A DNA stretch of 60,095 bases, taken from NCBI GenBank assembly GCA_049976365.1, contig JBMFIJ010000001.1, forward strand, positions 1-60,095, written 5' to 3'. The notes beneath the pieces are model-generated. The model had not been told where the DNA came from. It did not search any database and saw only the letters and a list, made by a program, of their open reading frames with translations. Below are positions 5,619-30,196 of this stretch, in pieces; position 1 is the stretch's first letter; each line of letters opens with the position of its first letter. The translations under genes were made by a program, and so were the position numbers. This DNA comes from Candidatus Aenigmatarchaeota archaeon (GTDB taxonomy: Archaea > Aenigmatarchaeota > Aenigmatarchaeia > CG10238-14 > SpSt-28).

Positions 5619-5746
5619 GACGGTCAGAGTTACCGCCGCCGCTCTGCGGGGCTTAGCCCGGTTGTAACCGGGTTTCACACACCGCAGCTGGGCAAACCTC
5701 AGGGACTGTACTCATCCTTTCGGACTAGCAGTCCCCTGCGTTTTTT

Positions 5747-7243: not shown

Positions 7244-7344
7244 CTTTCCAGGCGGTTAGCCGAGTAAAAGGATTAAGTTTAAATAAAAAATTCCAGCTTT
7301 TCCTGATTGAATCATTTTATTACATATATGCCTTCGACTAACCG
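7244..7344 (-). other. About 101-nt AT-rich insertion in 23S domain I (between GGAAAG and CUGAAAAGCACC)
   Basis: The canonical GUACCGUGAGGGAAAGCUGAAAAGCACC is split. The insert is bounded by the direct repeat GGAAAG and closed by GCGGUUAGUCGA/UCGGCUAACCGC. Confidence 0.7.
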
Positions 7345-14747: not shown

Positions 14748-15126
14748 GAAGGGTCAGTTTTTCATAATTTCTATAGTTTCACTATCTATAGTTTTATACG
14801 CGATAAGCAAAATAATTTTTCCTCCAGTTATAATTGATACATCTTCTGTAGCTTTAAGGGACGATTTCTTCGTTTTTAACAATATAGTCGAAAAAAGCTT
14901 ACAAACCATAAACCTAAGTAAAAGCTGTGATGATCTGACTTACAATTTGCAAGAGTTAAAGGAAATAATTAAAAAAAGTTATGCACCAAGATTCAGAGTA
15001 GAATATGAGTATAATATAATAAGTTGTAATGATGTTAGTAGAACTGCAAATATAGGCTTTAATATTTCTCTCTATTCTCCAGACTCCTTTATACAAACTA
15101 ATTTTACAAAAATTGTAAATTGGTAG
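14713..15126 (+). CDS. Class III signal peptide (archaeal type IV pilin-like) protein; likely start 14725
   Basis: N-terminus MRNLLKYKKG/QFFIISIVSLSIVLYAI: a short basic leader, KG-Q junction and hydrophobic helix. Confidence 0.5.
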   Translation: MGYHMRNLLKYKKGQFFIISIVSLSIVLYAISKIIFPPVIIDTSSVALRDDFFVFNNIVEKSLQTINLSKSCDDLTYNLQELKEIIKKSYAPRFRVEYEYNIISCNDVSRTANIGFNISLYSPDSFIQTNFTKIVNW

Positions 15127-15378
15127 GGTGTGCCTGCCATAACCCACCTTCTGTTCAGGGCAGCATTCGTCTAAGCGCCTTAAAGGCTTGCATCTCATCG
15201 ATTGTGTAGGTCCGTTTCACCCTTTTGTAAGCAACTCATATTTTAATCATCGTTATCGCTTACAAAAGGTCTCGTTTCTGATACCTACACAGGGCTTCTC
15301 AGCCCTTTTAATCTCGATGGGTGGAATTTCCTCACCCTTGCTTTTGGGCAAGGGCGAAGCTGCCCAGCAGGCTCACCC
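15126..15378 (-). ncRNA. rnpB: RNase P RNA (compact, about 253 nt, type A-like)
   Basis: The reverse strand reads:
- P1: GGGUGAGCCUGC, pairing with GCAGGCACACCC at the 3' end.
- P2: GGGCAGC/GCUGCCC.
- CR-I: GAGGAAAUUCCACC.
- CR-II/III: AGGGUGAAACGGAC.
- CR-V: ACAGAAGGUGGGUUAUGG.
The region is a GC-rich island. Confidence 0.85.
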
Positions 15379-15397
15379 AAAAAAAGTAATTTTTTTA

Positions 15398-15412
15398 AAT
15401 ATTTAAGCTTTA
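15398..15412 (-). promoter_or_regulatory. BRE/TATA promoter of the RNase P RNA
   Basis: The reverse strand reads AAAGCTTAAATATTT, with the TATA centre about 25 nt upstream of the predicted 5' G at 15378. Confidence 0.5.
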
Positions 15413-15427
15413 ATTTCAATCTCTTTA

Positions 15428-16447
15428 ATGGCTGGAAAGGAAATAACCATAAAAATACCAAGTTTTAGCCTGAAAAACAACTTTTGGAAAATATTGTCTC
15501 TGTTATTATTAGTTGTTTTAATTGGAACGAATTATCAAATAATTTCAGGTAGATTTTTGAGTTCGTACTCATCTCCACAAGAAATAGGTAAAAAAGTTAT
15601 AGATTTTATAAACAACAATTTAGTACAACCTGGAACTTCAGCCGAATTAATTAATGTAAGTGATAAAGGAAGCTATTATGAAATTTGGACGAAGTATAGG
15701 GGCACAGAAATTCCAGTGTATGCAACAAAAGACGGTAAAACATTATTTTTACAGGCTATTGAGATTAAAGAAACTATAACTCAAGCAACAGAAACTCAAA
15801 CAAATAAAGCTCAATCGTCTCCAAACATTCCTAAAAGAGATATACCAGATGTAAAAGTATTTATAATGAGTTATTGTCCATTTGGTATTCAAGCTGTTAA
15901 AGCGTTATTACCAGTTATGAAACTTTTAGATGGAAAGGCAAATATTTCTATTCATTACGTTTATTATGTAATGCATGGAGAAAAAGAGGTATATGAGAAT
16001 TTGAGGCAGTATTGTATACAAAAGGATCAAAGAGAAAAGTTTTATGATTATATGTTATGCTTTGTTCAAAGCGGAGATTATCAAAAATGTATTAATGAAG
16101 CAAAAATAGATGTTAATAAGTTGAATCTTTGCATGAATGAAACCGATGCTAAGTTTAATGTAACAAAGAATTATAAAGACAAAAGTAGTTGGTTAAATGG
16201 ATACTATCCTTTATTCTTAGTTGAAAAGGATTTGAATGATAAATATAATGTTGGAGGATCACCAACGATAATAATTAATGATCAGGAAGTTAGTATAAAC
16301 AGATCACCAGAAGCATTTAAGGAAGCTATATGCAGCGCTTTCACTAATCCTCCAGCAGAGTGCAACGAAAAACTTTCTAGTGAAGTAGCATCTCCAGGAA
16401 TAGGTCCATTAACTGGCGGTTCTAGTTCGAGTGGCTCTTGTGGTTAA
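15428..16447 (+). CDS. Membrane-anchored extracytoplasmic DsbA/thioredoxin-fold protein (monothiol CPFG site)
   Basis: N-terminal TM anchor; thioredoxin-fold start VKVFIMSYCPFGIQAV; several further Cys; GGSPTIIIN (cis-Pro loop-like); Ser/Gly tail. Confidence 0.55.
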   Translation: MAGKEITIKIPSFSLKNNFWKILSLLLLVVLIGTNYQIISGRFLSSYSSPQEIGKKVIDFINNNLVQPGTSAELINVSDKGSYYEIWTKYRGTEIPVYATKDGKTLFLQAIEIKETITQATETQTNKAQSSPNIPKRDIPDVKVFIMSYCPFGIQAVKALLPVMKLLDGKANISIHYVYYVMHGEKEVYENLRQYCIQKDQREKFYDYMLCFVQSGDYQKCINEAKIDVNKLNLCMNETDAKFNVTKNYKDKSSWLNGYYPLFLVEKDLNDKYNVGGSPTIIINDQEVSINRSPEAFKEAICSAFTNPPAECNEKLSSEVASPGIGPLTGGSSSSGSCG

Positions 16448-16449
16448 AA

Positions 16450-16962
16450 TTAGCTAACTAATATCTTTCTAAATTCTTCTTTTAATTTTATAATGTTCGT
16501 CTTTCCGTATTTTTCCTTAGTAATTATCCCTCTTTTAATAAGTTTTTCTATTACTCTATATGAATTTACCTTTCCAATATTTCTAGAAATTTTTGATTGC
16601 GTTATTTTACCATCGTTTTCTATCAACATTTTTATTACCAGGCTTTCACTTGGTTCGAATATTTTTAGCAATAGACTAAAATCTTTATTTTCTCCTTTTG
16701 TAAAATGCTGTGAAAATATGTAAAAGGAAATCAAACCAATAAGTATACCAAAAGAAGAAAACATCGGTATTAAAAGAGGAATTGGTAGTGTGCAAGAACA
16801 AGCTTTACCTTCAATTATTTGAGTCTGCGCATATAATGTTGCAAAAGAAACTGCAAATATAAATCCAGAAAGAATAGCCCCAAAAACTAGAATTATTTTT
16901 CTACCCAGCTTCATATTTAGTATTTGGCCTTTATTTATATAGGTTTCACTTTTTGAAACCAA
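16450..16962 (-). CDS. Membrane-tethered winged-helix transcriptional regulator; likely start 16914
   Basis: Two TM helices bracket a loop with KACSC, followed by a MarR/TrmB-like wHTH: LVIKMLIENDGKITQSKISRNIGKVNSYRVIEKLIKRGIITKE. Confidence 0.55.
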   Translation of the reverse strand: MVSKSETYINKGQILNMKLGRKIILVFGAILSGFIFAVSFATLYAQTQIIEGKACSCTLPIPLLIPMFSSFGILIGLISFYIFSQHFTKGENKDFSLLLKIFEPSESLVIKMLIENDGKITQSKISRNIGKVNSYRVIEKLIKRGIITKEKYGKTNIIKLKEEFRKILVS

Positions 16963-16993
16963 ATTATATATATGGTTTCAGCTAATATTTTCA

Positions 16994-18268
16994 ATGAAAA
17001 AAATTGAAGAAATCTTAAAAGAAGATAGAATTAAGGAAGCTAAAAGATCTTTTCAGAAAGCATATTTTACGTATATAATAAATAGAGAAAAAGCAATGAA
17101 AGACGTAAAAGTTGAAGAGTTAAAAAAAGAGCTGAGAAAAATTAAGGAATATTCAATTGATAATATAGAAAATCTTAAGAGAGAAGCTATTAAAAATTTA
17201 GAAAGAAACGGAATAAAAGTTTATGAAGCTAAGAAAGCAAAAGACGCCGTTAGAATTTTTAAAAAAATTGTTAAAAAAAGAGAAAGAATTGTTAAATCTA
17301 AATCTAATGTGATTCATGAAATTGGTTTAATAGAAAAAATTGAAAATAGGAATGAAGTTATAGAGACTGATTGTGGAGATTTTCTAGTTCAAATTTGTAA
17401 TGAAAAACCTTCGCATCCTGTTACACCGGCTCTTCATATCCCTATTGAAAAAATGGTCAGTATAATAGAAAAAAGATTTAAAGTTAAATTAAAGCCGAAT
17501 GCAAAGGAGATAGCTAAGTGGGTTAGAGAATATTTAAGAGAAAAAATAAGAGAAGCTGATGTTGGTCTGACAGGAGCTAACGTTATTTCTTCTGATGGCT
17601 CTATTTTCATTTTAGAAAATGAAGGAAACATTTCTTTAGTTAGCAGAATACCAAGGAAACATGTTATAATAACCTCAATTGATAAAATTGTTCCCACTAT
17701 TAAAGATGCCATTTTGATTTGTAAAGCCTCTTCTATTTGGGGTACAGGTTCATCTATGCCAGCTTATGTAAATGTTATTTCCTCTCCTTCAAAAACTGCT
17801 GACATTCAAAAAGAAATTGTTTATGGAATGCATGGTGCTGAAGAAGTTTATTTAATTTTATTGGATAATAATAGGTCAGAAATTGCAAAGAGCGAGCTAA
17901 AAGAAATTTTATACTGTATAAATTGTGGTGCATGCTTGTATGTATGTCCAGTTTATAGGCAAATATTTGATTATTATGGGTTTAATTATTTTGGCGGAAG
18001 GGGGGTTGCTTTATCTTCTCTAATTTATGGATTAAAAAAAGGTTATGAAAATGGTTTGTATTATTGCACAACTTGTATGGCATGTAAAGAAATTTGTCCT
18101 TTAAGCATAGATGTACCAAAGCTAATTAGAAAAGTTAGAACTCTTGCTTTGAAGAATGATATAACTACTGAAAGCGTAAGGCAAATGCTAGAAAATATAG
18201 AAGTTTCAGGAAACCCATTCGGCGAGGAAAAAGAAGGTATAATTCCGGATAAACTTTATTGTTGTTAG
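16994..18268 (+). CDS. LutB/HdrC-like protein: LUD domain plus two 4Fe-4S motifs
   Basis: CINCGACLYVCPVY and CTTCMACKEICPLS (two CxxCxxCxxxCP motifs) follow an N-terminal LUD/DUF162-like domain; 424 aa. Confidence 0.65.
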   Translation: MKKIEEILKEDRIKEAKRSFQKAYFTYIINREKAMKDVKVEELKKELRKIKEYSIDNIENLKREAIKNLERNGIKVYEAKKAKDAVRIFKKIVKKRERIVKSKSNVIHEIGLIEKIENRNEVIETDCGDFLVQICNEKPSHPVTPALHIPIEKMVSIIEKRFKVKLKPNAKEIAKWVREYLREKIREADVGLTGANVISSDGSIFILENEGNISLVSRIPRKHVIITSIDKIVPTIKDAILICKASSIWGTGSSMPAYVNVISSPSKTADIQKEIVYGMHGAEEVYLILLDNNRSEIAKSELKEILYCINCGACLYVCPVYRQIFDYYGFNYFGGRGVALSSLIYGLKKGYENGLYYCTTCMACKEICPLSIDVPKLIRKVRTLALKNDITTESVRQMLENIEVSGNPFGEEKEGIIPDKLYCC

Positions 18269-18276
18269 GTGGTTTT

Positions 18277-19566
18277 ATGAGTTTCAAAAAAATATTAATT
18301 CTTCTTTTTGTTTTGAGTTTGTTTATTAATGTTGCTTTAGGAGAAAAAGTATGTGTTTACATTTTTTATGGAGAAGGTTGTCCACATTGTAAAGAAGCTA
18401 GAGAATTTTTAAGTGAGTTAAAAAATAAGTATGAGTTAGAAATTCATGAATTTGAAGTTTATTATAATAAGAGTAATCAAAAATTGTGGGAAGAGGTTTC
18501 AAAAGCTTACAATGTAAAACCAATAGCAGTTCCAGAAATGTTTATCGGAAACAAAGCTTTTGTTGGATTTGCTTATGGTTCTCAAGAAGTTTTTGATAAT
18601 AGTTATAATGCGTGGGTTGGATATAGTGACATAATAGAAAAAACGATTAAGGAGTACTCAGATAAAGGCGTTGCTTGTCCTTCAATTTCAGGCAATTTCT
18701 CTTTGGTTAATTCAAACAATTTTGGCAATCTTTTCATTTACTCATTATTAGCTATCTTACTAATGTTTATTTTCTATCTAGTTTTCAAAAAAGTTAAAAT
18801 AAGAGTTAAAGCACTGATTTTGTTAGTAGCGTTACTATTCTCTTTTTCTCAAGCTTTTGCTTTTGATGCTAATAGTTTACCAACAAATTTACCCTTACCT
18901 TTACTAGGTGTTATTTTAGGATTGCTAGATGGCATTTTCAATCCTTGCGCACTTTCTGTTCTTCTTTTTATGATAGCATATCTTTTGTCTATCAACCTTA
19001 GAAAGAGAATGTTAATAGTTGGCTTTGTCTTTTCAGTCATGATTTTTACAGTTTACTTTTCATTTATGGTTGGAGTTTTCACAGTACTTCAAATACTTCC
19101 ATATATGGAGTTAATTAGAAACGTCGTTGTTCTATTACTAATAATATTTGGAGCAATTGAGATAAAAGATTTCTTCTATTATGGTAAAGGTTTCTCTCTT
19201 TCCATACCTTCTTTTGCTCACAAAAAAATAGAAAAGCTGATTAAAGCAGGAACAATACCTGCTGCTCTTCTTTTAGGATTATTAGTTAGTTTAGTAGAAA
19301 TACCTTGTGCTGGTGCTTTTCCATTTGCTTATACTTTCATACTAGCATCTAAAGGTATTTCAAAAGAGTTATCAATACTGTATATAATTTGGTATAATAT
19401 CTTTTTTGTATTCCCCCTAATTGCACTGACTATTTTCTTCTATTTTAGTTTTAAGAAGATAGAAAAAGCTGAAAAAACTAGAAAAAAACTGAGAAGATAC
19501 ATGAGGCTTGTTGCAGGTTTGATTATGATATTGCTAGCAATATTAATGTACTTAAGGTGGTTATAA
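18277..19566 (+). CDS. Fusion of a secreted glutaredoxin/thioredoxin-like domain (CPHC) with a CcdA/DsbD-type transmembrane thiol-disulfide transporter
   Basis: SD AGGTGG (18267-18272) then ATG 18277; the ORF track starts at TTG 18259. Signal peptide, YGEGCPHCKEA, then a 6-TM core with the paired motifs FNPCALSVLLF and VEIPCAGAFP. Confidence 0.7.
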   Translation: MSFKKILILLFVLSLFINVALGEKVCVYIFYGEGCPHCKEAREFLSELKNKYELEIHEFEVYYNKSNQKLWEEVSKAYNVKPIAVPEMFIGNKAFVGFAYGSQEVFDNSYNAWVGYSDIIEKTIKEYSDKGVACPSISGNFSLVNSNNFGNLFIYSLLAILLMFIFYLVFKKVKIRVKALILLVALLFSFSQAFAFDANSLPTNLPLPLLGVILGLLDGIFNPCALSVLLFMIAYLLSINLRKRMLIVGFVFSVMIFTVYFSFMVGVFTVLQILPYMELIRNVVVLLLIIFGAIEIKDFFYYGKGFSLSIPSFAHKKIEKLIKAGTIPAALLLGLLVSLVEIPCAGAFPFAYTFILASKGISKELSILYIIWYNIFFVFPLIALTIFFYFSFKKIEKAEKTRKKLRRYMRLVAGLIMILLAILMYLRWL

Positions 19567-20310
19567 ATGTCATGGCTTGATAAATTATTAGGAGGAAACA
19601 TTCTTTATTATCCAGGATGCTTAACAAAATTTGTAGCTAAAGATTTGAAGAAAAACTATGAAAAAATTTTGGAATTGTGTGGAATAGAATTTATTGAATT
19701 GTCTGATAAAGAGGTTTGTTGTGGTTCTCCAGCTTTAAATGCAGGAGCTGAAGACACTTTTAAGATGCTTGCAAAAAAGAATTTTAAAGTTTTTAAAGAG
19801 CATGCTATAAAGAAAATTATATTTTCTTGCCCTGCTTGCTTTAAAACATTTTCACAAGATTATAGGGAATTGTTTGGAGAGGAATGGAAAATAGAATGCG
19901 AATATATTTTGATAACAATTATGAGGGCATTAAAAGAGGGTAAGATAAAAATTAAAAGAAAATTTAAGGAAAGAGTGACTTTTCACGATCCATGCTATTT
20001 AGCTAGATATTCAGAAATAATTAATGAACCTAGAGAAATTCTAAAAATGCTAGGCTTTAAAATAGTGGAAATGGAATTTTATGGCAAGAACACTTTTTGT
20101 TGTGGTGGTGGAGGAGGACTACAATCTAATTATCAAGCTCTGGCTAATGAAATAGCTGAAGAAAGAATAAGTCAAGCTAAAAAAATAAAAGTTAAAACAA
20201 TTATAACATCTTGCCCTTTATGTTATTTACACTTGAAAAGAAATTCTAAAGGAATAAAAGTCATGGAGATTTCTGATATAATTATTAGTGCTATTGAAGA
20301 AAAGAAATAA
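19567..20310 (+). CDS. LutA/HdrB-like (Fe-S) protein with two CCG domains
   Basis: EVCCGSPA...SCPAC and TFCCGGGGG...SCPLC, the two CX(n)CCGX(m)CXXC cysteine-rich domains; 247 aa. It starts one nt after the upstream stop. Confidence 0.7.
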   Translation: MSWLDKLLGGNILYYPGCLTKFVAKDLKKNYEKILELCGIEFIELSDKEVCCGSPALNAGAEDTFKMLAKKNFKVFKEHAIKKIIFSCPACFKTFSQDYRELFGEEWKIECEYILITIMRALKEGKIKIKRKFKERVTFHDPCYLARYSEIINEPREILKMLGFKIVEMEFYGKNTFCCGGGGGLQSNYQALANEIAEERISQAKKIKVKTIITSCPLCYLHLKRNSKGIKVMEISDIIISAIEEKK

Positions 20311-20318
20311 GTAGATAG

Positions 20319-20582
20319 TTAAATTTTAATTTTCTTTATAATTTTTAGCAATGATTCTCCTCTTCTTGTCAAGCTGTATATTTTTCTTTTATGAAAAGCT
20401 CTCTTTTTTATAACATTCTCTTTCAAAAGAATCTTTATAGAATAAGTTAAAGAAGGAGAACAAACTTTACATTCCTTCTTAATTTTATTAAATGATTTCT
20501 CTCCTTTTGATAGGCATAACATTACTTCTAAGTTTGTTTTATTTCCTAGTATTTTTGAAATTTTTTTGGTATCGAGCTTCAT
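20319..20582 (-). CDS. ArsR/HxlR-like small winged-helix regulator with CxxC
   Basis: 87 aa; NLEVMLCLSKGEKSFNKIKKECKVCSPSLTYSIKILLKENVIKK. Confidence 0.55.
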   Translation of the reverse strand: MKLDTKKISKILGNKTNLEVMLCLSKGEKSFNKIKKECKVCSPSLTYSIKILLKENVIKKRAFHKRKIYSLTRRGESLLKIIKKIKI

Positions 20583-20628
20583 AATAAATATTTATATTAA
20601 TAATTATGAAAAGTATAAAAATTATACT

Positions 20629-21057
20629 ATGAGCGAGGATAAGGAATTAGAAAAAATTAGAAGGAAAAAGTTGAATGAACTAATGAAAAGATATGGTTTA
20701 GAGAGCTCTTCAAAAAAAATACCAAGTATAATAGAGGTAAATGATAGTAATTTTAGAGAAAATGTAATAGAGTTGTCAAAAAAAATACCAGTATTAGTTG
20801 ATTTCTATGCAGATTGGTGTTACCCTTGTAAAATTTTATCACCAGTTTTAGAGAAAATTGTTAAAGAAAATAGCGGAAAAATTGTTTTAGCTAAAATTAA
20901 TGTTGATAAATCTCCAATTACAGCAGGTGAATTTGGTATAATGAGTGTACCTACAGTAATTCTTTTTAAAGATGGTGAAGCAATAGATAGATTTGTCGGA
21001 GCATTACCGGAACCATACATAAAAGAGTGGCTAAAAGAGGAGGTTATGATTGTATGA
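20629..21057 (+). CDS. trxA: Thioredoxin (WCYPC active site)
   Basis: VLVDFYADWCYPCKILSPVLEKI...VPTVILFKDGE. ATG 20629 is preferred over the upstream alternative start at 20566. Confidence 0.85.
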   Translation: MSEDKELEKIRRKKLNELMKRYGLESSSKKIPSIIEVNDSNFRENVIELSKKIPVLVDFYADWCYPCKILSPVLEKIVKENSGKIVLAKINVDKSPITAGEFGIMSVPTVILFKDGEAIDRFVGALPEPYIKEWLKEEVMIV

Positions 21058-22010
21058 ACGAAATGTATGATGTAATAATAGTTGGAGGAGGGGCAGCAGG
21101 ATTAACTGCTGCAATTTATGCAGCGAGAAGACTGTTGAAAACACTTATAATAACTTTAGATATAGGAGGGCAAGCATTGCTAACGGATCAAATAGAAAAT
21201 TATCCTGGTTATTTAGGAAAAAGTGGAATAAAGCTTATGAAAATATTTGAGGAACAAGCAAGGAGTTTTGGTGCAGAAATTTTAATAGGTTATGTTACAA
21301 AAATAGAAAAAGTAGATGATCATTTTAAAGTTATAAGTAATGTTGGAGAATATGAAACAAAAGCAGTTATAATTGCGGCAGGAAAAGTTCCAAGGAAACT
21401 GAATGTTCCAGGAGAAGATAAGTTTTTAGGAAGAGGAGTTAGTACATGTGTAACTTGTGATGCACCATTTGCAAAAAATAAAATAGTTGCTGTAGTAGGC
21501 GGGGGAAACTCCGCTTTAGAAGGAGCAGAAGTTTTGTCTAAATTTGCAACTAAAGTCTATTTAATTCATAGGAGAGATGAGTTTAGGGCAGATGAAATAA
21601 CTGTAGAAAAAGTTAAAAAGTTATCAAATGTTGAATTTGTTTTAAACACAATTGTTACAGAAATAAAAGGCGATAAAAAATTAGAGAGCATCATTATAAA
21701 GAATGTAAAGAGCGGAGAAGAAAGAGAACTTAAGGTTGATATGGTATTTCTAGAAATTGGTCATGAGACTAAAATAGATTTTGTAAAACATTTAGTAAAA
21801 GTAGATGAATATAATCAAATTATAACCAATAAATTAGCTGAAACAAGTTGCGAAGGAATTTTTGCTGCGGGTGATGTTACGGATTCTCCTTACAAGCAAC
21901 TAGTAATAGCTGCAGCAGAAGGAGCAATAGCGGCCTTATCAGCTTATAATTATATAGCAAAAAAAGAGGGAAAGACTGGAATTAAAGTTGACTGGAAAGG
22001 AGGTGGTTAA
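21054..22010 (+). CDS. trxB: Thioredoxin reductase
   Basis: YDVIIVGGGAAGLTAAIYAAR (FAD), CVTCDA redox centre, VVGGGNSALEGA and HRRDEFRA (NADPH), GDVTD. ATGA overlap with the trx stop. Confidence 0.9.
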   Translation: MNEMYDVIIVGGGAAGLTAAIYAARRLLKTLIITLDIGGQALLTDQIENYPGYLGKSGIKLMKIFEEQARSFGAEILIGYVTKIEKVDDHFKVISNVGEYETKAVIIAAGKVPRKLNVPGEDKFLGRGVSTCVTCDAPFAKNKIVAVVGGGNSALEGAEVLSKFATKVYLIHRRDEFRADEITVEKVKKLSNVEFVLNTIVTEIKGDKKLESIIIKNVKSGEERELKVDMVFLEIGHETKIDFVKHLVKVDEYNQIITNKLAETSCEGIFAAGDVTDSPYKQLVIAAAEGAIAALSAYNYIAKKEGKTGIKVDWKGGG

Positions 22011-23112
22011 AATTATAGAAAAATTTATGGATGAATTTGGTCCTGAAAAAATAATAGAGGTTTACGATCCAAGAGTTAAACTTCATGGCTTTGTTGTTAT
22101 TGATAATACTGTAAGAGGGCCAGGAAAAGGAGGAATAAGAATGACCCCAACAGTTACAATTGAAGAAGTTTTTAGATTAGCAAGAACAATGACTTGGAAG
22201 ACTGCTTTAGCGGACTTACCATTTGGAGGAGCAAAATCGGGAATTGTAGCAAAGGAAGAAGAAATTAAGAACAAGGAAAGAAAAAGAGAGCTTATGATTG
22301 CATTTGGAAGAGCTTTGAAAAATATTGCTCCAAAGATTTACATAGCAGCACCGGATATAAATACTGGGGAAGAAGAAATGAGATGGTTTGTTGAAGGTAA
22401 TGGTAATCCAAAATCTACTACAGGAAAACCTAAAGATTTAGGTGGTTTACCACACGAGCTAGGAAGTACAGGTTTTGGAGTTTATCATGCTACTTTAGTA
22501 GCAGCTAAATTTATGAAAATGGATATAAAGAATTCAACAATAGCAATAGAAGGCTTCGGAAACGTTGGTAATTTTGCAGCAAAGTTTTTGTATAAAGAGG
22601 GAGCAAAGATAGTTGCCATTAGTGATAGTAAAGGAGTTATTTATAACAAAGATGGAATAGATATAGAAAAATTATTAGAAGTTAAAAAACAAACGGGAAG
22701 TGTAATTAATTATAAACCAGGAGAAGTTTTACAAAATGAAAAGATTTTTGAGTTAGATGTAGATATTTTAATACCTGCAGCGATGCCAGATGTTATAAAT
22801 GAAAAAAATGTTGACAAAATTAAAGCAAAAATTATAGTAGAAGCTTCTAATATTCCAGCAAAACCAGAAATAGAGGATAAATTACATAATAGAGGAATTT
22901 TAGTTGTTCCTGATTTTGTTGCAAATGCAGGTGGAGTAATATCAAGTTATGCAGAATATAGAGGATATGATGAACAAAGAGCATTTTCTCTAATAGAGAA
23001 GAAAATTGTTAAAAACACAAAGCTAGTACTAAAAAGAGCGAAAAAAATGAATGTAAAGCCAAGAGATGCAGCAATGGAAATAGCCAAGGAAAGAGTTTTG
23101 AAAAAGATTTAA
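21988..23112 (+). CDS. Glu/Leu/Phe/Val dehydrogenase family protein (short, GDH-like active site); start uncertain (TTG 21988 or ATG 22027)
   Basis: GPGKGGIRM catalytic Lys motif, GFGNVG NAD(P) fold, PDFVANAGGV; 374 aa. Confidence 0.8.
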   Translation: MTGKEVVKIIEKFMDEFGPEKIIEVYDPRVKLHGFVVIDNTVRGPGKGGIRMTPTVTIEEVFRLARTMTWKTALADLPFGGAKSGIVAKEEEIKNKERKRELMIAFGRALKNIAPKIYIAAPDINTGEEEMRWFVEGNGNPKSTTGKPKDLGGLPHELGSTGFGVYHATLVAAKFMKMDIKNSTIAIEGFGNVGNFAAKFLYKEGAKIVAISDSKGVIYNKDGIDIEKLLEVKKQTGSVINYKPGEVLQNEKIFELDVDILIPAAMPDVINEKNVDKIKAKIIVEASNIPAKPEIEDKLHNRGILVVPDFVANAGGVISSYAEYRGYDEQRAFSLIEKKIVKNTKLVLKRAKKMNVKPRDAAMEIAKERVLKKI

Positions 23113-23133
23113 ATTATCTTTTTTTATTTTTTT

Positions 23134-23823
23134 ATGAGAGTTTATGTATTTTCGTTTCTTCCGACAAAAAAAATAAAAAAGATGCTTCTCAAAAATGGGT
23201 TTACAGTTTCAAGCTTCAAGCCAGATATTATCGTTAGTTATGGTGGAGATGGAACGTTTTTAACTGCAGAAAGAAGCTATCCATCAATACCAAAGCTTAT
23301 AGTAAAAAAAGAAAAAAAAGTAAAAGATTTTGAAATCCTAGAGGCAGAATTGGCAAAATACTTACCAAAACTGAAGAATGGTTTATTCAAGATTGTTGAA
23401 TTTGATAAAGTAGAAGCGATATTCAAAAACAAAAGATTAGTAGGTATTAATGAAGTTCAGATAAGGAACAAATTACCTATAGAAGCCTTAAGATTTAATG
23501 TTTCAATTAATGAAAAAAAGTTTGAAAATGTAATTGCAGATGGAATGATAGTTGCTACGCTATTTGGCTCTACCGGATATTATTCTTCAGCTGGTGGAAA
23601 GAAATTTAAAAGAGGATTAGGTTTGTGCTTTAACAACCCTCATAATATAAAAATAAAAAGTATCATTCTTAATGGAAATGAAGAAATTAAAGTTAAAATA
23701 TTGAGAGGCATGGCATACTTAGCTAGCGATAATAATCCTATGCTGTTAAATTTAAAGGAAGGAGATGAAGTTTTGATTAGAAAGAGTGAAGAAAAAGCTA
23801 AAATAATAAAATTTAGATCATAA
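23134..23823 (+). CDS. nadK: NAD kinase
   Basis: IIVSYGGDGTFLTA (GGDG motif), GMIVATLFGSTGYYSSAGG; 229 aa. Confidence 0.75.
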   Translation: MRVYVFSFLPTKKIKKMLLKNGFTVSSFKPDIIVSYGGDGTFLTAERSYPSIPKLIVKKEKKVKDFEILEAELAKYLPKLKNGLFKIVEFDKVEAIFKNKRLVGINEVQIRNKLPIEALRFNVSINEKKFENVIADGMIVATLFGSTGYYSSAGGKKFKRGLGLCFNNPHNIKIKSIILNGNEEIKVKILRGMAYLASDNNPMLLNLKEGDEVLIRKSEEKAKIIKFRS

Positions 23824-23969
23824 ATGACTTTAGTCTTATGACATTTCCTTTTCTCCTTTCAAAACCTTTTTTAAGCTTTCTGTATTTTTTCTTCTTCATT
23901 TCAGGCTCATAAGAGTAGATATCCATTATCTTTCTTAAATTTTTGATATTTATATATAGAAAGCAATAT

Positions 23970-24647
23970 ATGCAGATGCTAATAGATGAAGAATCAAGAA
24001 GAGTTTTAGAAGAAAAATTTGAGAAGGAAATGAAAAGAAATGTGGAGATTTATTATTTTGTAGAAAAGCATGAACATTCTCATGATGAACATTCTCATCA
24101 TGAACATATACACTTAGATGAGATAGTTGATCAGTTTTTGCAAGAGTTATCCGAACTTTCAAAAGGAAAGATAGAAATTAAAAAATTTGGATTAAATTCT
24201 AAAGAAGCCAAGGAATTTAGCGTAGATAGAAATTTAACAATACTTATCGATCCCAGAAACGGATACAGGATATTTTATATTGGCTCTCCTTTAGGCGAGG
24301 AAGCTTGGGCTTTTATAGATACAATAGTTCAAGTTTCGAAAGATGAAAGTAATATTTCAAAAAGATCTAAAGAAAAACTTAAAGATTTGAATAAAAACGT
24401 AGAAATTCAAGTTTTTGTAACTCCTCAATGTCCTTATTGTCCATATCAAGTACTTCTAGTTAACAACATAGCTATAGAAAAGAAAGGATTAGTTCATGCT
24501 AAATGTATAGAGTCGTTGGAAAATCCTGATCTTGCTGATAAATTTAATGTTCAAGCAGTACCCCACACTGTTATAAATGAAAAGCAAGAACTAATAGGTG
24601 TTCAACCAGAAGACAGAATGGTAGAAGCTATACTTAAAGAGGGATGA
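23970..24647 (+). CDS. Protein disulfide oxidoreductase (PfPDO-like, two thioredoxin-fold units) with a His-rich segment replacing the first CXXC
   Basis: The C-unit VFVTPQCPYCPYQV...VQAVPHTVIN is intact. In the N-unit, the position aligned to PfPDO DHCQYCDQLKQLVQELSEL reads KHEHSHDEHSHHEHIHLDEIVDQFLQELSEL. Confidence 0.7.
   Translation: MQMLIDEESRRVLEEKFEKEMKRNVEIYYFVEKHEHSHDEHSHHEHIHLDEIVDQFLQELSELSKGKIEIKKFGLNSKEAKEFSVDRNLTILIDPRNGYRIFYIGSPLGEEAWAFIDTIVQVSKDESNISKRSKEKLKDLNKNVEIQVFVTPQCPYCPYQVLLVNNIAIEKKGLVHAKCIESLENPDLADKFNVQAVPHTVINEKQELIGVQPEDRMVEAILKEG
24069..24113 (+). repeat. Imperfect 15-nt tandem repeat encoding HEHSH-DEHSH-HEH
   Basis: catgaacattctcat gatgaacattctcat catgaacat, read directly. 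Confidence 0.8.
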
Positions 24648-25359: not shown

Positions 25360-25566
25360 TCACCTCGAAGCTAATTCAATATCTTCTTTTTTTACAGTTA
25401 ACCTTTTTGCATGATTTGCTAATTCTATAGCTCTTTTACTAATTTTTTCGCTTAAATCTATCATTGCTTTCTCTATTTCTATCAATGCTTCTTTTGAAAC
25501 TCTTTTTACATTATTAGCCTTAGCAAGCTTTAACAATGTGTTTTTTCTAAATTTTATGTCGTTCAT
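25360..25566 (-). CDS. Archaeal histone (HMf family)
   Basis: 68 aa histone fold: RVSKEALIEIEKAMIDLSEKISKRAIELANHAKRLTVKKEDIELA. Confidence 0.8.
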   Translation of the reverse strand: MNDIKFRKNTLLKLAKANNVKRVSKEALIEIEKAMIDLSEKISKRAIELANHAKRLTVKKEDIELASR

Positions 25567-25597
25567 TTATATTAATGTTGCTCAGAAATATAAATTT

Positions 25598-27517
25598 ATG
25601 GAAATAGAATCTACTTGCATTTATTGTGCTGTTGGATGCAAACTGAAATATGAGGTTGAAAGCAATAGAATTATCAGAGTTTTGCCATTAAAAGATGATC
25701 CAGTTTCGAAGGGAAGACCATGTATAAAAGGACTTTTAATAAATGAAGTAGTTGATTATGGAAGGATTTTAAAACCGATGATAAGAGAAGGTAAAAGGTT
25801 CAGAGAGATATCTTGGGATAAAGCGTTTTTAACGTTGTATAAAATTTTAAATAAATATTCTGGTGAGGAAATTTTCTTCTCCGCTTCAGGAAAAATAACT
25901 AATGAAGATAACTTTGTTATTCAAAAATTTGTTAGAATTGTAATGGATTCAAACAATATAGATAATTGTTGTTCAAGACTTTGTCATATGCCAACCCTCT
26001 TAGCGTTTAAAGACGCTTTCGGTATTGGCGCATCTCCAGGCTATCTAGATGAAATAGAAAATTTAGATTGTTTGCTTATAGTTGGATCCAATCCGGCTTC
26101 TAACCATCCTGTTATCTTTAATAGAATTTTAGAAATGAAAGAAAAAGGAGGTAAAATAATTTTAATTTCTCCTATAATTTCAGAAACAGCAGATTATTCT
26201 GATTTACATCTAAAAGTAAATCCTGGAACAGAACTATTATTTTTTAACTGTTTAATTAACCTTCTGATAGAAAGAAGAGAAATAAAAAAACAATGTAAAG
26301 GATTTGAGGAACTGAAAGAAATTGTAAAAGATTATACTCCAGAAATGTTAGAGGAATTTTGTGGAATAAAAAAAGAAGAATTTTATGAGGCAGTTAACAT
26401 CATAGCTAATTCAAAAAATTTTGGTATAATACATGGTATGGGTCTCACGCAACATACTAATGCTGTAGAAACTTTGCATGGGCTAACTAATTTAGCTATT
26501 ATAACTAATGCTAAAATTTTAACTAATAGGGGAGAGATAAATGTACAAGGAAGCGGTGATATGTTAACTTTTCCTTATCCACTACAATTTAGTGAAGATG
26601 TAAATCAAAAATACTTAAGAAAAATTTGGAAAAAAGAACTTTCATCAAAAAAAGGAACGAATCTTATAGAAGCAATTGGTTTTGGGAATTCTAAAGTATC
26701 TTTTATAACTTCTTTTAACCCTGCTCAGTCGATGCCAGACCTTAATAGAATTCATAAAAATTTAAGAAAGATGTATATAGTTCAATTGGAATCTTATTTC
26801 AACTTAACCTCTTATTTTTCTAAGCTGATCTTACCAACACCTCTCTTAATTGAAAGAAAAGGAACTATAACTACCGGAGAAAGAAGAGTAAGATTAGTAA
26901 GAAAGGTTAGAGATCCTCCAGGAGAATGTATGAATGAGTGGAAAATATTCTCAAGATTGGCAAGGATGTTCGATATCAAAGGATTTGAATATAAGGATGA
27001 AATAGAAATTTTTGAAGAAGCAACAAAAATTGTAAAGGCATACAATAAAGTAGATGCAAAAAAGGTTTATTCTGGAAAAGACGCTTTTGCAGACAAGAAA
27101 ATAAAGTTTTTGAAAATAATACCAGAAAAGTTTCTGGGTTTAGAAGAAATTAGAAGCAGAAAATATCCATTCATTCTATTTACATTTAGGTCCAAGTTTC
27201 ACTTTTTAACTAATGAAGCTACTGGAAAATCAAAAATTTTAAATAAGTCTCAAGAAGGGCCTTATTTTTACTTAAATGAGGAAGATGCAAAAATGTTGAA
27301 AATAAAGAATTTTGATGAAATTGTTGTTAAAAGTAAAGTTGGTAGCTTAAGAGGATATGCCTTTATAAGCAAAAGAATTTTAAAGGGATATGTTGGGGCG
27401 CACTTTCATTTCGAAAACCTTCTTGTTAACAAACTCTATCCTTTAGATTTTGATAAAAGAAGCTTCACACCAAACTTTAAGAATGTTGCTGTTAAAATAG
27501 TAAAAGTAAGGAAGTAG
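25598..27517 (+). CDS. Molybdopterin oxidoreductase, formate dehydrogenase alpha-like (Cys type)
   Basis: N-terminal 4Fe-4S motif CIYCAVGCKL...CIKG; active-site region NCCSRLCHMPT (Cys-His, no in-frame TGA); MGD-binding domain layout. ATG 25598 is preferred over 25538. Confidence 0.7.
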   Translation: MEIESTCIYCAVGCKLKYEVESNRIIRVLPLKDDPVSKGRPCIKGLLINEVVDYGRILKPMIREGKRFREISWDKAFLTLYKILNKYSGEEIFFSASGKITNEDNFVIQKFVRIVMDSNNIDNCCSRLCHMPTLLAFKDAFGIGASPGYLDEIENLDCLLIVGSNPASNHPVIFNRILEMKEKGGKIILISPIISETADYSDLHLKVNPGTELLFFNCLINLLIERREIKKQCKGFEELKEIVKDYTPEMLEEFCGIKKEEFYEAVNIIANSKNFGIIHGMGLTQHTNAVETLHGLTNLAIITNAKILTNRGEINVQGSGDMLTFPYPLQFSEDVNQKYLRKIWKKELSSKKGTNLIEAIGFGNSKVSFITSFNPAQSMPDLNRIHKNLRKMYIVQLESYFNLTSYFSKLILPTPLLIERKGTITTGERRVRLVRKVRDPPGECMNEWKIFSRLARMFDIKGFEYKDEIEIFEEATKIVKAYNKVDAKKVYSGKDAFADKKIKFLKIIPEKFLGLEEIRSRKYPFILFTFRSKFHFLTNEATGKSKILNKSQEGPYFYLNEEDAKMLKIKNFDEIVVKSKVGSLRGYAFISKRILKGYVGAHFHFENLLVNKLYPLDFDKRSFTPNFKNVAVKIVKVRK

Positions 27518-27527
27518 AAAATTAGAT

Positions 27528-27710
27528 ATGATTAGAGGAACACTAAGAGACATACTCATCATATATCTATGCTTTTCTATTTTCTCAAACATTCTTTCTG
27601 GAAATTTCAAGGCAGACAGCACGTTTATAGTTTCAACTTTAATCGTATTTTTTCTAACTATATGGTTTATTTTGGAAAAAATTGGTATTCTACCTAAATT
27701 TACAGGATAA
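27528..27710 (+). CDS. Possible small membrane protein
   Basis: 60 aa with two hydrophobic helices. It overlaps the convergent OFOR-beta 3' end by 11 nt. Confidence 0.25.
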   Translation: MIRGTLRDILIIYLCFSIFSNILSGNFKADSTFIVSTLIVFFLTIWFILEKIGILPKFTG

Positions 27711-28560
27711 TTCCCTTTATCAAATTTGCAAAGTTAACATCTTTTTTTCTTTTGTAAAATATCTCATTTATTTCTTCCTTTTCCTCAAAAGTTTCTTTTG
27801 TTTCTTTCCAAAATATCCCTATTGGTATTTTTGATTTTTCTTCAAGATTATAATTCCATTCCAAGGAAAGTTTCATCGCCTCTTCAAAACTTTTTGGTAT
27901 TTCAATTTTGTAGATTCTTTCTTTTAGAAAATTGGTTGTATTGTGAAATACTATGCAAGGTTGTAAAATATCAACAAAAGAAAAACCTTTGTGTAATATA
28001 GCTTCTCTCATAACATTTTCTAAATGCTCTTTCTCTAGTACAAAGCTTCTAGCAACGAACGATGCTTTACTAGCTAACATAAGAAATACAGGATTTATTG
28101 GTTCTTGTTTTTCTCCTTCAGGTCTAACTTTAGATTTATAGTTCCTTTCGCTAGTTGGAGTAGATTGACCAACAGTTAATGCAAAGTTTTGATTGTTATG
28201 TACAAAAACTTTAATATCTACATTATATCTAGCAGCGTGAATTAAATGGTCTAGACCTTCAGCGTAAATATCGCCATCTCCAACAAAAGAAATTACCTTT
28301 AAATCTTTATTAGCAACTTTAATACCTAAAGCTGTTGGTATTGCTCTTCCATGCAAAGCATTAAAGCTAGAGAGATTTAAATAATCGGAAATTTTTCCAT
28401 GGCAACCTATTCCAGCAACAACAACTACTTTTTTCAAGTCTATTTTACCCTCTTTTTCCAGTTCACTCAAAACTTTTGCAAAAGAGTGTAAAATTATGTT
28501 GTTTAAACAACCGGGACACCAGCTTATTTTATAATTGCTTATTATTTTATTGTTTTCCAC
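27700..28560 (-). CDS. 2-oxoacid:ferredoxin oxidoreductase beta subunit (TPP-binding)
   Basis: SWCPGCLN, AGIGCHGK, FVGDGDIYAEG (TPP motif); 286 aa. Confidence 0.85.
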   Translation of the reverse strand: MENNKIISNYKISWCPGCLNNIILHSFAKVLSELEKEGKIDLKKVVVVAGIGCHGKISDYLNLSSFNALHGRAIPTALGIKVANKDLKVISFVGDGDIYAEGLDHLIHAARYNVDIKVFVHNNQNFALTVGQSTPTSERNYKSKVRPEGEKQEPINPVFLMLASKASFVARSFVLEKEHLENVMREAILHKGFSFVDILQPCIVFHNTTNFLKERIYKIEIPKSFEEAMKLSLEWNYNLEEKSKIPIGIFWKETKETFEEKEEINEIFYKRKKDVNFANLIKGIIL

Positions 28561-30196
28561 TTAACCACCTTTTTACATTCAATATAATTTCTTCGCTTGT
28601 AAATGGTCTACCATCATATTTTAATATCTCATCTAACTCAAAACCGGTATTTTCTCTTATAACGCTTCCTAACTGACCGCCAACATTATTTTCTATAATA
28701 ACTTTCCTTTTTGATTTTTCAATTTCTCCCTTTACAATTTCTTTTGGAAATGGAGAAATGTAAATTATATGAAGGAATCTAAAATCTTTTAAAGTAGATA
28801 AAGCATCTAATATTGCTCCTTTTGTAGAACCGAAGCTTATTATGAGATTTTTCCCATTTCCATAAACTTTTGCCATTTCAAATTTTCCCTCAACTTCTTT
28901 CTTTAATGTCTCAAATTTTCTCATTCTTTTTTCTTGCATGGCTTTTGCTGTTTTTGCATCTTCTGTTGTAAATCCATATTCATCATGCTCATAGCTATTT
29001 ACTTTTACAATTGCTTCACCAGGAACGCTTCTTGGAGATATGCCATCCTTTGTTAGAGAATAAGTTTTAAATTTCTTTTGATCTTTCAGTATTATGTTTT
29101 CAACTTTTATCTTAGGTTCTTCTATGCTGTCAAAAGTGTAAAAACTTTCTGCCAGATGTTTGTCAGAAAGAATTATTGAAAGAACATTGTATTTGTAAGC
29201 CAAATAAAATGCTTCGATTGTTTTGTAAAAAGCTTCTTTTGCATCTCCGGGCGCAATAACGACTCTAGGAAAATCACCATGGCCACAATTTAATGCTAAT
29301 TTTAAATCGCCTTGCATGGTATAAGTTGGCATACCAGTCGAAGGTGATGCTCTTTGAGCTAAATATACTACTAAAGGAATTTCTGTCATTCCTTGTAAAC
29401 TCATAGCTTCACACATCAAATCAAATCCGCCACCAGAAGTTCCTACCATAGAAATAGCGCCAGCATAGCTTGCCCCTAATGCAGCATTTGCTACAGCAAT
29501 TTCATTTTCAAGCTGAAGGGTTTTCATTTTATATTCTTCTCTTTTGCTAGAAAGAAAATGCAATAATGGGGTTGCTGGTGTCATTGGATAAGCAAAGTAT
29601 ATATCTAATCCAGAATAAATTGCTCCTAAGCCTACAGCTGTTGTACCGTCTATAAATACTTTTTTGTTTCTTCTCTCAGGTATCTCAATTTTTTTTAGCT
29701 TTCTTGAATATTCATAACCTAATTTCGCTGCCTCTAAATTTTTTTCATCTTTTAATCTTTCCTTTATAGATTCTAAAAGCGTTTCTAAAGGAAGATCTAA
29801 CGCTTTAAACAAGGCACCTAGAAATATAGAATTTCTTACTAAAGGTTTTGCATTTATTTTCTCTATTATTTCTTGAGTATTTACTTTAACATGTTTCTTG
29901 TAAGAGACGCTTAAGTCAGAAATTAGTATACAATCTGGCTTGAATTCATTTCTATGTATTTTAAAGCTATTTTCATCTAAAGCTATAGCTAAATCGAATG
30001 CTAGTTCATGAGAATGTATCGGTTTTTCTGATATACTAATTACATTAAAATTATGACCGCCTGTAATGAATGAGCCATAGTCTCTATAAACAAAAGAATA
30101 AAATCCCAATTTTATAAATGATTTTGCTAGAATTTCAGAAGAGGCTTCTATTCCTTGCCCAGCTTGCCCACCAATGAGAATGTTTATTTTCATCAT
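28547..30196 (-). CDS. 2-oxoacid:ferredoxin oxidoreductase alpha subunit (gamma-alpha fusion)
   Basis: N-terminal gamma-like IGGQAGQGI followed by an alpha domain (YPMTPATPLL, GTSGGGFDLM); 549 aa. It overlaps the beta subunit start. Confidence 0.85.
   Translation of the reverse strand: MMKINILIGGQAGQGIEASSEILAKSFIKLGFYSFVYRDYGSFITGGHNFNVISISEKPIHSHELAFDLAIALDENSFKIHRNEFKPDCILISDLSVSYKKHVKVNTQEIIEKINAKPLVRNSIFLGALFKALDLPLETLLESIKERLKDEKNLEAAKLGYEYSRKLKKIEIPERRNKKVFIDGTTAVGLGAIYSGLDIYFAYPMTPATPLLHFLSSKREEYKMKTLQLENEIAVANAALGASYAGAISMVGTSGGGFDLMCEAMSLQGMTEIPLVVYLAQRASPSTGMPTYTMQGDLKLALNCGHGDFPRVVIAPGDAKEAFYKTIEAFYLAYKYNVLSIILSDKHLAESFYTFDSIEEPKIKVENIILKDQKKFKTYSLTKDGISPRSVPGEAIVKVNSYEHDEYGFTTEDAKTAKAMQEKRMRKFETLKKEVEGKFEMAKVYGNGKNLIISFGSTKGAILDALSTLKDFRFLHIIYISPFPKEIVKGEIEKSKRKVIIENNVGGQLGSVIRENTGFELDEILKYDGRPFTSEEIILNVKRWLSGKQ

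Follow-up and report, generated by a model that had tools for sequence, protein, structure and literature searches.

We analysed a window of 60,095 nucleotides, the stretch from position 1 of contig JBMFIJ010000001.1 (Candidatus Aenigmatarchaeota archaeon), and focused on an island of eleven consecutive genes with thiol-redox functions. The window has a GC content of about 30% and contains an archaeal large-subunit (LSU) rRNA gene. The nearest homologues of the island proteins were found in genomes named Candidatus Aenigmatarchaeota, a lineage of the DPANN archaea. A sequence-only reading of this DNA had described the island as one chain, in which NAD kinase makes NADP, a dehydrogenase reduces it, and thioredoxin reductase and thioredoxin pass electrons to a CcdA-type membrane protein and on to extracytoplasmic domains. 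All eleven open reading frames (ORFs) listed in that reading were recovered at their positions, and most of its thiol-redox labels were backed by family models. Labels were assigned with Pfam and NCBIfam models, scores being judged against the curated cut-offs. The features are collected in Table 1.

Table 1. Features of the island and its surroundings; transcription units are numbered within the island.
Feature	Position	Strand	Unit	Remarks
LSU rRNA gene match, archaeal	4225-7857	-		spans 3633 nt versus a 2987-position model
KaiC-family ATPase gene	10135-10857	+		next comes a small ORF whose helix-turn-helix weakly resembles sigma-70 region 4
RNase P RNA, archaeal	15128-15376	-		137.8 bits; directly upstream of the island
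Membrane-anchored Cys-rich exoprotein	15428-16447	+	1	N-terminal transmembrane anchor, weak GILT/DsbA-like thioredoxin fold
Membrane-tethered winged helix-turn-helix (wHTH) regulator	16450-16962	-	2	two transmembrane helices; DUF7343 E = 1.8e-8
LUD + 2x[4Fe-4S] protein, LutB-like, HdrC-like Fe-S domain	16994-18268	+	3	LUD_dom E = 6.5e-43
C-terminal tail of the LUD-FeS protein	18209-18265	+	3	GNPFGEEKEGIIPDKLYCC; vicinal Cys-Cys end
Exo-Trx-CcdA-like protein	18259-19566	+	3	signal peptide, CPHC glutaredoxin/thioredoxin-like domain, two linker transmembrane helices, six-helix transmembrane core
2xCCG protein	19567-20310	+	3	CCG E = 9.3e-37, two copies
HxlR-type regulator	20319-20582	-	4	HxlR E = 3.9e-8; weaker ArsR matches
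Thioredoxin, cytoplasmic	~20629-21057	+	5	WCYPC; TIGR01068 110.5 bits versus cut-off 96.8
Low-Mr thioredoxin reductase	~21054-22010	+	5	CVTC; NADPH-type HRRDEFR; TIGR01292 364.6 bits versus cut-off 343.45
Short ELFV dehydrogenase, glutamate-dehydrogenase (GDH)-like	~22027-23112	+	5	ELFV_dehydrog E = 1.8e-61
Compact NAD kinase	23134-23823	+	5	GGDGT; NAD_kinase_C E = 2.9e-15, 56.6 bits versus cut-off 23.7
Protein disulfide oxidoreductase (PDO)	23943-24647	+	5	TIGR02187 187 bits versus cut-off 185, model positions 2-208 of 209
Small, strongly hydrophobic ORF, 93 aa	24644-24925	+		start overlaps PDO stop; no Pfam match
Molybdopterin oxidoreductase (formate-dehydrogenase-like domains)	25538-27517	+		just downstream of the island
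Pyruvate:ferredoxin oxidoreductase (POR)	27700-30196	-		just downstream of the island

The genes do not form a single unit; they fall into no fewer than five transcription units, two of which are regulator genes in divergent orientation. Since a scan for sigma-70 promoters and terminators was uninformative (55 promoter-like sites versus 51 expected, in a genome that is archaeal), operons were called from spacing, overlaps and GGTGG motifs. The exoprotein gene stands alone. The wHTH regulator gene, with a probable start at 16914 (M17), lies 79 nt from the divergent LUD-FeS gene. The genes for the LUD-FeS, exo-Trx-CcdA-like and CCG proteins follow each other with gaps of 8 and 0 nt, GGTGG standing close before the internal starts; the probable start of the exo-Trx-CcdA-like protein is the ATG at 18277, and the start codon of the CCG protein directly abuts the stop codon before it. 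The HxlR regulator gene begins 46 nt from the start of the thioredoxin gene, which opens the longest unit: thioredoxin and thioredoxin reductase overlap in an ATGA, after which gaps of 16, 21 and about 120–150 nt separate the GDH-like, NAD kinase and PDO genes, the PDO starting probably at 23970 or 23976.

Comparison with relatives showed that the island consists of two separately conserved thiol-redox modules, which came to be adjacent through local rearrangement. Module A comprises the membrane wHTH regulator and, divergent from it, the LUD-FeS, exo-Trx-CcdA-like and CCG genes; module B comprises the HxlR regulator and, again divergent, the genes for thioredoxin, thioredoxin reductase, GDH-like enzyme, NAD kinase, PDO and a small membrane ORF. 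The comparison covered 160 related loci in all. For module A, one genome per GTDB species was searched with an alignment of the exo-Trx-CcdA-like protein, which gave 80 loci whose neighbouring genes were called by tblastn with the window proteins; for module B, metagenomes were searched with the GDH-like protein, which gave another 80 loci. The sequence-only reading had made its case dependent on conservation of the neighbourhood in relatives, and conservation was found, although in two parts. In the four nearest species (loci L001, L082, L085 and L090) about 2.8 kb separate the end of module A from the exoprotein gene and the HxlR-thioredoxin operon. In L001 the spacer contains genes for an MscS-like protein, RPA, aIF2-beta and a DUF424 protein plus a fifth gene, and this set also precedes the exoprotein gene in the window. 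From this spacing and the shared spacer genes we conclude that the unbroken island, found in the window and in a contig 99% identical to it (L081), arose when module A was transposed locally. L008, L012 and L014 likewise have the two modules side by side, and L008 has LutB, thioredoxin domain, CcdA, CCG, thioredoxin reductase, thioredoxin, GDH and NAD kinase in one co-directional run. In the other relatives with full flanks neither thioredoxin nor thioredoxin reductase was found near module A.

Our main result is the conservation of module A, a set of CcdA-like, Fe-S and CCG genes whose Fe-S protein ends in a Cys-Cys tail. Of the 80 species-level loci, 52 have a CCG gene no more than 3 kb from the CcdA-like gene. 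The loci carry the labels Aenigmat-, Woese-, Pace-, Nano-, Iain-/Micr- and Nanohal-archaeota, with a few from Patescibacteria and other bacterial bins. Thioredoxin was found within 10 kb of the CcdA-like gene in only eight of the 80 loci and thioredoxin reductase in seven. The LutB-like and CCG proteins, which the sequence-only reading had left as bystanders, are thus the conserved partners of the CcdA-like gene, while the step from thioredoxin to CcdA, possible as it is, is the least supported link of the chain it proposed. Gene order within the module varies (LutB-CcdA-CCG, CcdA-CCG-LutB and CCG-LutB-CcdA), and the thioredoxin domain is placed N-terminally, C-terminally (L163) or in a separate ORF; this shuffling indicates that the linkage was kept through repeated rearrangement.

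The module occurs with two kinds of dehydrogenase head. A full LUD-FeS protein is present in 37 loci, and a short Fe-S protein in 14. A GlcD-like FAD oxidase (FAD_binding_4 + FAD-oxidase_C) accompanies exactly these 14 short Fe-S proteins and is found in none of the LUD-type loci. LUD- and GlcD-type heads are known from L- and D-2-hydroxyacid dehydrogenases that depend on Fe-S and CCG subunits (LutABC/LldEFG and GlcDEF/Dld-II). That two such heads are interchangeable suggests that the module works with a hydroxyacid/oxoacid couple in the cytoplasm. The 14 loci resemble GlcDEF and Dld-II in combining a GlcD-like oxidase with a GlcF-like Fe-S/CCG pair; they differ from GlcDEF in that GlcF is split in two, the Fe-S part carries the Cys-Cys tail and a CcdA-like gene is linked, and no GlcE was found in them. 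This variant belongs to other loci and not to the window. Public annotations list the proteins as LUD-domain, iron-sulfur or lactate-utilisation proteins and as CcdA or GAP-family proteins. No curated family captures module A, we found no description of it in open-access papers and preprints, and a paper on Aenigmarchaeota metabolism does not mention the module genes.

The LUD-FeS protein of the window contains a LUD domain and a dicluster domain (Fer4_8 E = 2e-13) and scores below the curated models of its characterised relatives, with 278.3 bits versus a cut-off of 444.8 for the LutB equivalog TIGR00273 and 299.6 versus 800 bits for LdhH. Among 26 aligned sequences 58 columns are invariant. 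Its AlphaFold2 model (mean predicted local distance difference test score, pLDDT, of 88; predicted template-modelling score 0.88) superimposes on Bacillus subtilis LutB (9a6l_B, from the integrative LutA-LutB model) with a template-modelling score of 0.86. Like LutABC/LldEFG and the fused LdhH of Desulfovibrio, module A thus pairs a LUD + 2x[4Fe-4S] protein with a 2xCCG protein. Unlike them it has no LutC, its CCG motifs are complete with five plus five cysteines where those of E. coli LutA are not, and its operon encloses a gene for a membrane thiol relay.

A further difference from LutABC is the tail itself. The pattern GNPFG-x(8-14)-[LFMV][YF]CC ends 51 of the 52 complete Fe-S proteins encoded near CcdA-like genes; the sole exception, in a methanogen bin, is encoded by an unrelated gene at a distance of 9 kb. 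After the tail TAG (19), TGA (18) and TAA (14) all serve as stop codons, which shows that the Cys-Cys end is the genuine C-terminus; selenocysteine read-through is ruled out by the same mixture. E. coli LutB (YkgF) lacks the tail. An exhaustive search of 1.84 billion cluster representatives for LutB-like proteins returned 5,140 matches at E <= 0.001, and among the best 150 of these the Cys-Cys end was present in only 15, of 263–424 residues, and absent from 135. Within the same 150 representatives an internal [LFM][YF]CC did not occur, 55 were LdhH-like fusions with CCG domains, and none matched the CcdA-like protein as a Rosetta-stone fusion would. Conversely, all five CC-tailed LUD proteins that we examined adjoin both a CCG gene and a CcdA-, DsbD_2- or SfLAP-like gene. 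In the window model the final stretch of about 20 residues is devoid of secondary structure (pLDDT 64–76).

We propose that the tail is a redox-active swinging arm, a role suggested by its conservation and position. C-terminal redox arms have precedents in DsrC acting with DsrK, in the SCCS and GCUG ends of the large thioredoxin reductases and in the CC tail of MerA. As in the high-Mr thioredoxin reductases and MerA, the end would be flexible and carry two adjacent redox-active residues that shuttle electrons or a ligand between a buried centre and an external partner, although the folds are unrelated. In one relative (L079, 12462-13487) the CC-tailed Fe-S ORF of 341 aa overlaps a GlcD-like match, which may mean that the two are fused (GlcD-FeS) or that the gene was called wrongly.

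The CCG protein carries two complete HdrB-type motifs, CX31-39CCX35-36CXXC, the first being C18-x32-CC-x35-CxxC (C18, C51, C52, C88, C91) and the second C143-x34-CC-x36-CxxC (C143, C178, C179, C216, C219). None of these ten cysteines varies among the 53 proteins compared; in E. coli LutA (YkgE), by contrast, the first Cys is missing from both CxxC. In HdrB the full five-Cys motif is the ligand of the noncubane [4Fe-4S] clusters, at which the heterodisulfide is reduced. Among curated models the protein matched best to TfrB, the thiol-oxidising subunit of thiol:fumarate reductase, but below the cut-off (153.5 versus 385 bits), and the HdrB model TIGR03288 gave 55.1 bits versus a cut-off of 345. 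Its matches in the PDB are mycobacterial EtfD, which is the best, and HdrB, with HdrC also among the sequence matches. Module A therefore resembles HdrBC/HdrDE, DsrMK-DsrC and TfrAB in having an HdrC-like dicluster protein with an HdrB-type CCG protein, in the predicted thiol/disulfide chemistry and coupling to a membrane protein, and shares with DsrC/DsrK a Cys-bearing C-terminal arm as the likely substrate. It differs from all of these systems in that the protein in the membrane has neither a haem nor a quinone site and acts itself as dithiol/disulfide carrier, that the arm sits on the Fe-S subunit and that the cytoplasmic couple is probably a 2-hydroxyacid and its 2-oxoacid.

The third component is the membrane protein. 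In its AlphaFold2 model (pLDDT 80) a thioredoxin fold at residues 31–136 (pLDDT about 95) is followed by two linker helices and six core helices, which are broken at N228-P229-C230 and at P349-C350. Both Pro-Cys motifs, which lie in TM1 and TM4 of a 3+3 core, vary little or not at all among 26 sequences, and D224, N228, P229, C230, C350 and other positions are invariant. The Lys/Arg-rich loops, including the highly conserved KDFFxYGKG, are placed on the cytoplasmic side. Together with the fusion of the thioredoxin domain at either end these loops fit an N-out/C-out topology, for which a distant relative gives independent support by its reversed order, a CcdA-like core followed by a C-terminal CPHC thioredoxin domain (L163, 6206-7447). 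The extracytoplasmic domain has CPHC in 35 of the 45 linked loci in which a thioredoxin domain is present. Like E. coli DsbD and B. subtilis CcdA, which works with ResA or StoA, the protein has one essential Cys in each Pro-Cys motif, pseudo-symmetric transmembrane helices and a polytopic membrane part that serves an extracytoplasmic partner of thioredoxin fold. Unlike them, it has as its conserved neighbour in genomes an Fe-S/CCG pair plus dehydrogenase head, and not thioredoxin, and its exo-domain is a small glutaredoxin-like CPHC domain, fused at either end or separate. We also noticed that many of the CcdA-like proteins end in ...WL. In the window the last codons, AGG TGG TTA TAA at 19555-19566, hold a GGTGG that is Shine-Dalgarno-like and stands just before the CCG start, so that part of the C-terminal conservation may reflect translational coupling.

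Taken together, the linkage makes it highly probable that the module A genes are functionally coupled. For their mode of action we regard the following as the probable scheme: module A would be an autonomous transmembrane thiol-disulfide relay, fed through the Cys-Cys arm by a unit that resembles both hydroxyacid dehydrogenases and HdrBC. The LUD-FeS and CCG proteins would act as a complex, as the LutA-LutB pair has been modelled (9a6l). The cytoplasmic 2-hydroxyacid-dehydrogenase head, LUD here and of GlcD type elsewhere, would exchange electrons with the two [4Fe-4S] clusters, which would pass them to the two noncubane clusters of the CCG protein. These would reduce a disulfide on the Cys-Cys tail. 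The tail, taking the role that thioredoxin has for DsbD and CcdA, would then reach C230 and C350 of the membrane core, from where electrons could move to the fused CPHC domain and on to surface or secreted clients. As to direction, an outward, reducing flow is slightly favoured, by analogy, because DsbD and CcdA export reductant, HdrB reduces disulfides, and Lut and Glc enzymes oxidise hydroxyacids; in our weighting the inward direction keeps a smaller but substantial share. What is observed is the linkage, the domain content, the invariant cysteines and the topology; from these we infer the complex, the part played by the tail, lactate/pyruvate as cytoplasmic couple and the outward direction.

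Several observations weigh against this scheme. In 28 of the 80 loci the CcdA-like gene has no CCG or Fe-S neighbour, which shows that the relay can stand apart; no other recurrent redox neighbour was found in these loci. The transmembrane domain of the window protein matches neither DsbD_TM (PF02683) nor DsbD_2 (PF13386) of Pfam, from which it is too divergent, hhalign, run with the family alignment against E. coli DsbD, aligned only the CxxC region and none of the transmembrane part, and a Foldseek search with the full model returned thioredoxin and glutaredoxin folds only and no solved CcdA. SfLAP is the Pfam model matched by 20 of the 26 family members. We therefore cannot claim membership of the canonical DsbD/CcdA families. 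By all architectural criteria examined the core behaves like a CcdA, by profile only a distant member of the DsbD superfamily, and of the "CcdA/DsbD" fusion announced by the sequence-only reading the architecture, the paired cysteines and the exo-domain stand while the match to DsbD models does not. The chemistry of the LUD head is unproven, and the precise roles of the LutABC proteins have been described as unclear (PMC3924224). LutC, which is part of the canonical LutABC, is absent: no LUD-only protein was found in the window or in any locus, and tblastn with E. coli YkgG matched only the LUD domain of the LutB-like protein. EtfD, the best PDB match of the CCG protein, uses its CCG domains in quinone-linked transfer and not in disulfide reduction. 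Thioredoxin and thioredoxin reductase are encoded immediately downstream here and in four relatives, and thioredoxin may feed the relay. Finally, CPHC together with Val-cisPro is the DsbA pattern, which argues for an oxidising direction.

The last point leads to a different reading of the same complex, which we consider rather unlikely on balance. Run inward, it would be a quinone-independent counterpart of DsbB or VKOR for disulfide formation: the exo-domain would oxidise secreted proteins and hand electrons over the CcdA-like cysteines, the tail, the CCG clusters, working as in thiol:fumarate reductase, and the Fe-S clusters to the head, which would reduce pyruvate or another 2-oxoacid. Besides the dominance of CPHC in the exo-domain, such a reading would accommodate the thiol-oxidising activity of TfrB, which the CCG protein matches best among curated models, as well as the extra conserved cysteines of the exo-domain and the neighbouring exoprotein, which may form structural disulfides. 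A new electron sink would also explain a dedicated Fe-S enzyme where thioredoxin and its reductase already take care of reduction, and to our knowledge DPANN archaea and the candidate phyla radiation (CPR) are generally described as lacking quinone-based respiration. All characterised members of the DsbD/CcdA family, however, are known to send reducing power outward, enzymes of LutABC and GlcD type are known as oxidisers of hydroxyacids, and the oxidising power of the pyruvate/lactate couple (about -190 mV) is low. The archaeal glutaredoxin-like thioredoxin MJ0307 has CPHC and yet a very low potential, for which our literature search gave no confirmation; the motif by itself does not decide the direction. 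Less probable still is the linear chain of the sequence-only reading, from NAD kinase over GDH, thioredoxin reductase and thioredoxin to the CcdA-like protein, with the LutB-like and CCG proteins as an unrelated lactate-oxidising enzyme on its flank. Thioredoxin is the established donor of DsbD and CcdA, its gene and that of the reductase follow module A at 0.3 kb in the window, directly in L008, L012 and L014 and at 2.8 kb in L001, and the loci without Fe-S or CCG neighbour would fit this chain. An unrelated flanking enzyme is nevertheless hard to reconcile with a CcdA-like gene placed between LutB and CCG at spacings of at most 8 nt, with a CCG linkage that survives shuffling across two domains of life while thioredoxin and its reductase are rarely near, and with a Cys-Cys tail that is nearly universal beside CcdA-like genes but rare among LutB-like proteins at large and missing from E. 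coli LutB.

It is very improbable that module A is a plain lactate dehydrogenase of LutAB or GlcDF type whose membrane partner is a permease of the LysE/SfLAP superfamily or a passive anchor. The only Pfam match of the window transmembrane domain is indeed SfLAP, below the cut-off (30.1 versus 35 bits), no transmembrane similarity to E. coli DsbD was detected, and the public annotation of the partner proteins as lactate utilisation proteins would agree. Against a permease or anchor stand the membrane cysteines of the NPC and PC motifs, which all 26 sequences share, the CxxC thioredoxin domain that is fused at either end or encoded adjacent, the family members that match DsbD_2 (2/26) or DsbD_TM (1/26), and the CCG motifs of full HdrB type.

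Module B was found to be conserved only in close relatives. Among the metagenome loci, those with a GDH-like protein at least 56% identical to that of the window have thioredoxin reductase directly upstream in 17 of 19 cases and NAD kinase directly downstream in 17 of 19, compared with 1/31 and 0/41 below 56% identity. The string of exoprotein, oppositely oriented HxlR regulator and thioredoxin–thioredoxin reductase–GDH–NAD kinase–PDO recurs in the nearer relatives; farther out a core of thioredoxin reductase, GDH and NAD kinase remains, with thioredoxin downstream of the reductase in some. This conserved collinearity supports the part of the earlier chain that runs from NAD kinase to thioredoxin, and thioredoxin and the NADPH-type reductase both exceed their curated cut-offs. 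In the GDH-like protein both Pfam ELFV domains are strong and the motifs GPGKGGIR and GGAK are present; it scores 294.8 bits against GdhA_Arch, below the cut-off of 750, and is proposed as a putative source of NADPH. All NCBIfam NAD kinase models were matched below cut-off. The PDO assignment holds by its family model, but the protein has a single CxxC, the C-terminal CPYC, and the N-terminal unit lacks one in 13 of 13 aligned sequences. This unit contains a His-rich insert, HEHSHDEHSHHEHIH, at about 24075-24120, which is complete only in the window and L081 and shorter in L107, and which may be a metal-binding site. The 93-aa ORF follows the PDO gene directly in at least 11 related loci; given this conservation, the thioredoxin operon probably extends one gene beyond the end at 24,647 given in the sequence-only reading.

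In our view module B reduces disulfides in the cytoplasm as a self-sufficient system that also provides its own NADPH. NAD kinase would make NADP, the GDH-like enzyme would reduce it, and the NADPH-type thioredoxin reductase would reduce thioredoxin and probably the PDO too, the whole set being presumably under the CxxC-bearing HxlR-type regulator. The system resembles those of Pyrococcus and Sulfolobus in its low-Mr NADPH-type thioredoxin reductase, thioredoxin and PDO. It differs in that the genes form one string with a GDH-like dehydrogenase and NAD kinase, that the PDO has lost its N-terminal CxxC, and that a CxxC regulator of HxlR type is divergently encoded.

The exoprotein had been called DsbA-like and taken as an end point of the relay, which our analysis does not support. 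The active-site position reads CPFG, with a single Cys (CP[FY]G in nine of ten aligned homologues), the matches to GILT (19.5 bits versus a cut-off of 22.4) and Thioredoxin_4 stay below threshold, and no DSBA match was found in Pfam. The outer domain has several further conserved cysteines, and a conserved Ser/Gly-rich stretch leads to a C-terminal SGSCG whose conserved Cys could serve for attachment or for a mixed disulfide. Ten of the 80 loci have a homologue at most 10 kb from the CcdA-like gene. In relatives the gene is usually found just upstream of the HxlR gene; its counterpart in L001 is at 14786-15808.

Both regulators carry conserved cysteines. The wHTH regulator has a CxC (ACSCT) in the outward loop between its two transmembrane helices, a homologue is encoded beside module A in 25 of the 80 loci, and the CxC loop is kept in loci labelled Aenigmatarchaeota, Woesearchaeota, Pacearchaeota, Iainarchaeota and Parvarchaeota, features that would fit a sensor of envelope redox state. 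The other regulator had been read as ArsR-like with a CxxC. The CxxC is real (CKVC here, C[KN][AV]C in 12 of 12 sequences), but HxlR describes the family better than ArsR. Its gene is divergent from the thioredoxin operon and lies upstream of thioredoxin in relatives too.

The surroundings of the island were also inspected. The match to the LSU rRNA gene suggests an insertion of about 650 nt, an intron or an expansion; no small-subunit rRNA gene was found in the 60 kb window. The ORFs at 14956-15198 (- strand) and 15188-15406 (+ strand) overlap the RNase P RNA and were dismissed as spurious. The KaiC-family gene and the small ORF with the sigma-70 region-4-like motif appear to have no relation to the island. 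POR lies 7 kb from module A in the window and adjoins it in L166-L168; a general link was rejected, since POR occurs in none of the 80 species loci. Farther downstream the gene for aRF1/eRF1 (32985-34553, + strand) carries a Hint/intein insertion between domains 1 and 2.

These findings bear on the question how ultra-small, host-dependent archaea and bacteria without a respiratory chain regulate the redox state of proteins that they secrete or display on the surface. As a general proposal, which we put forward tentatively, an Fe-S/noncubane enzyme linked to lactate and pyruvate may feed the DsbD superfamily through a Cys-Cys arm in DPANN and CPR organisms, described as lacking quinone-based respiration, and thereby bypass thioredoxin; this would be a class of input to the superfamily not described before. 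If true, this would provide a concrete electron route that needs neither quinones nor thioredoxin, it would extend the chemistry of HdrB-type CCG clusters to protein dithiol relays, and the "lactate utilisation" and "LUD domain" proteins of these lineages would have to be re-assigned. Should the relay run inward, it would be the missing quinone-free counterpart of DsbB and VKOR for oxidative folding in DPANN and CPR. The string of module B genes, in turn, points to the provision of NADPH for a disulfide reductase system in a genome-reduced archaeon.

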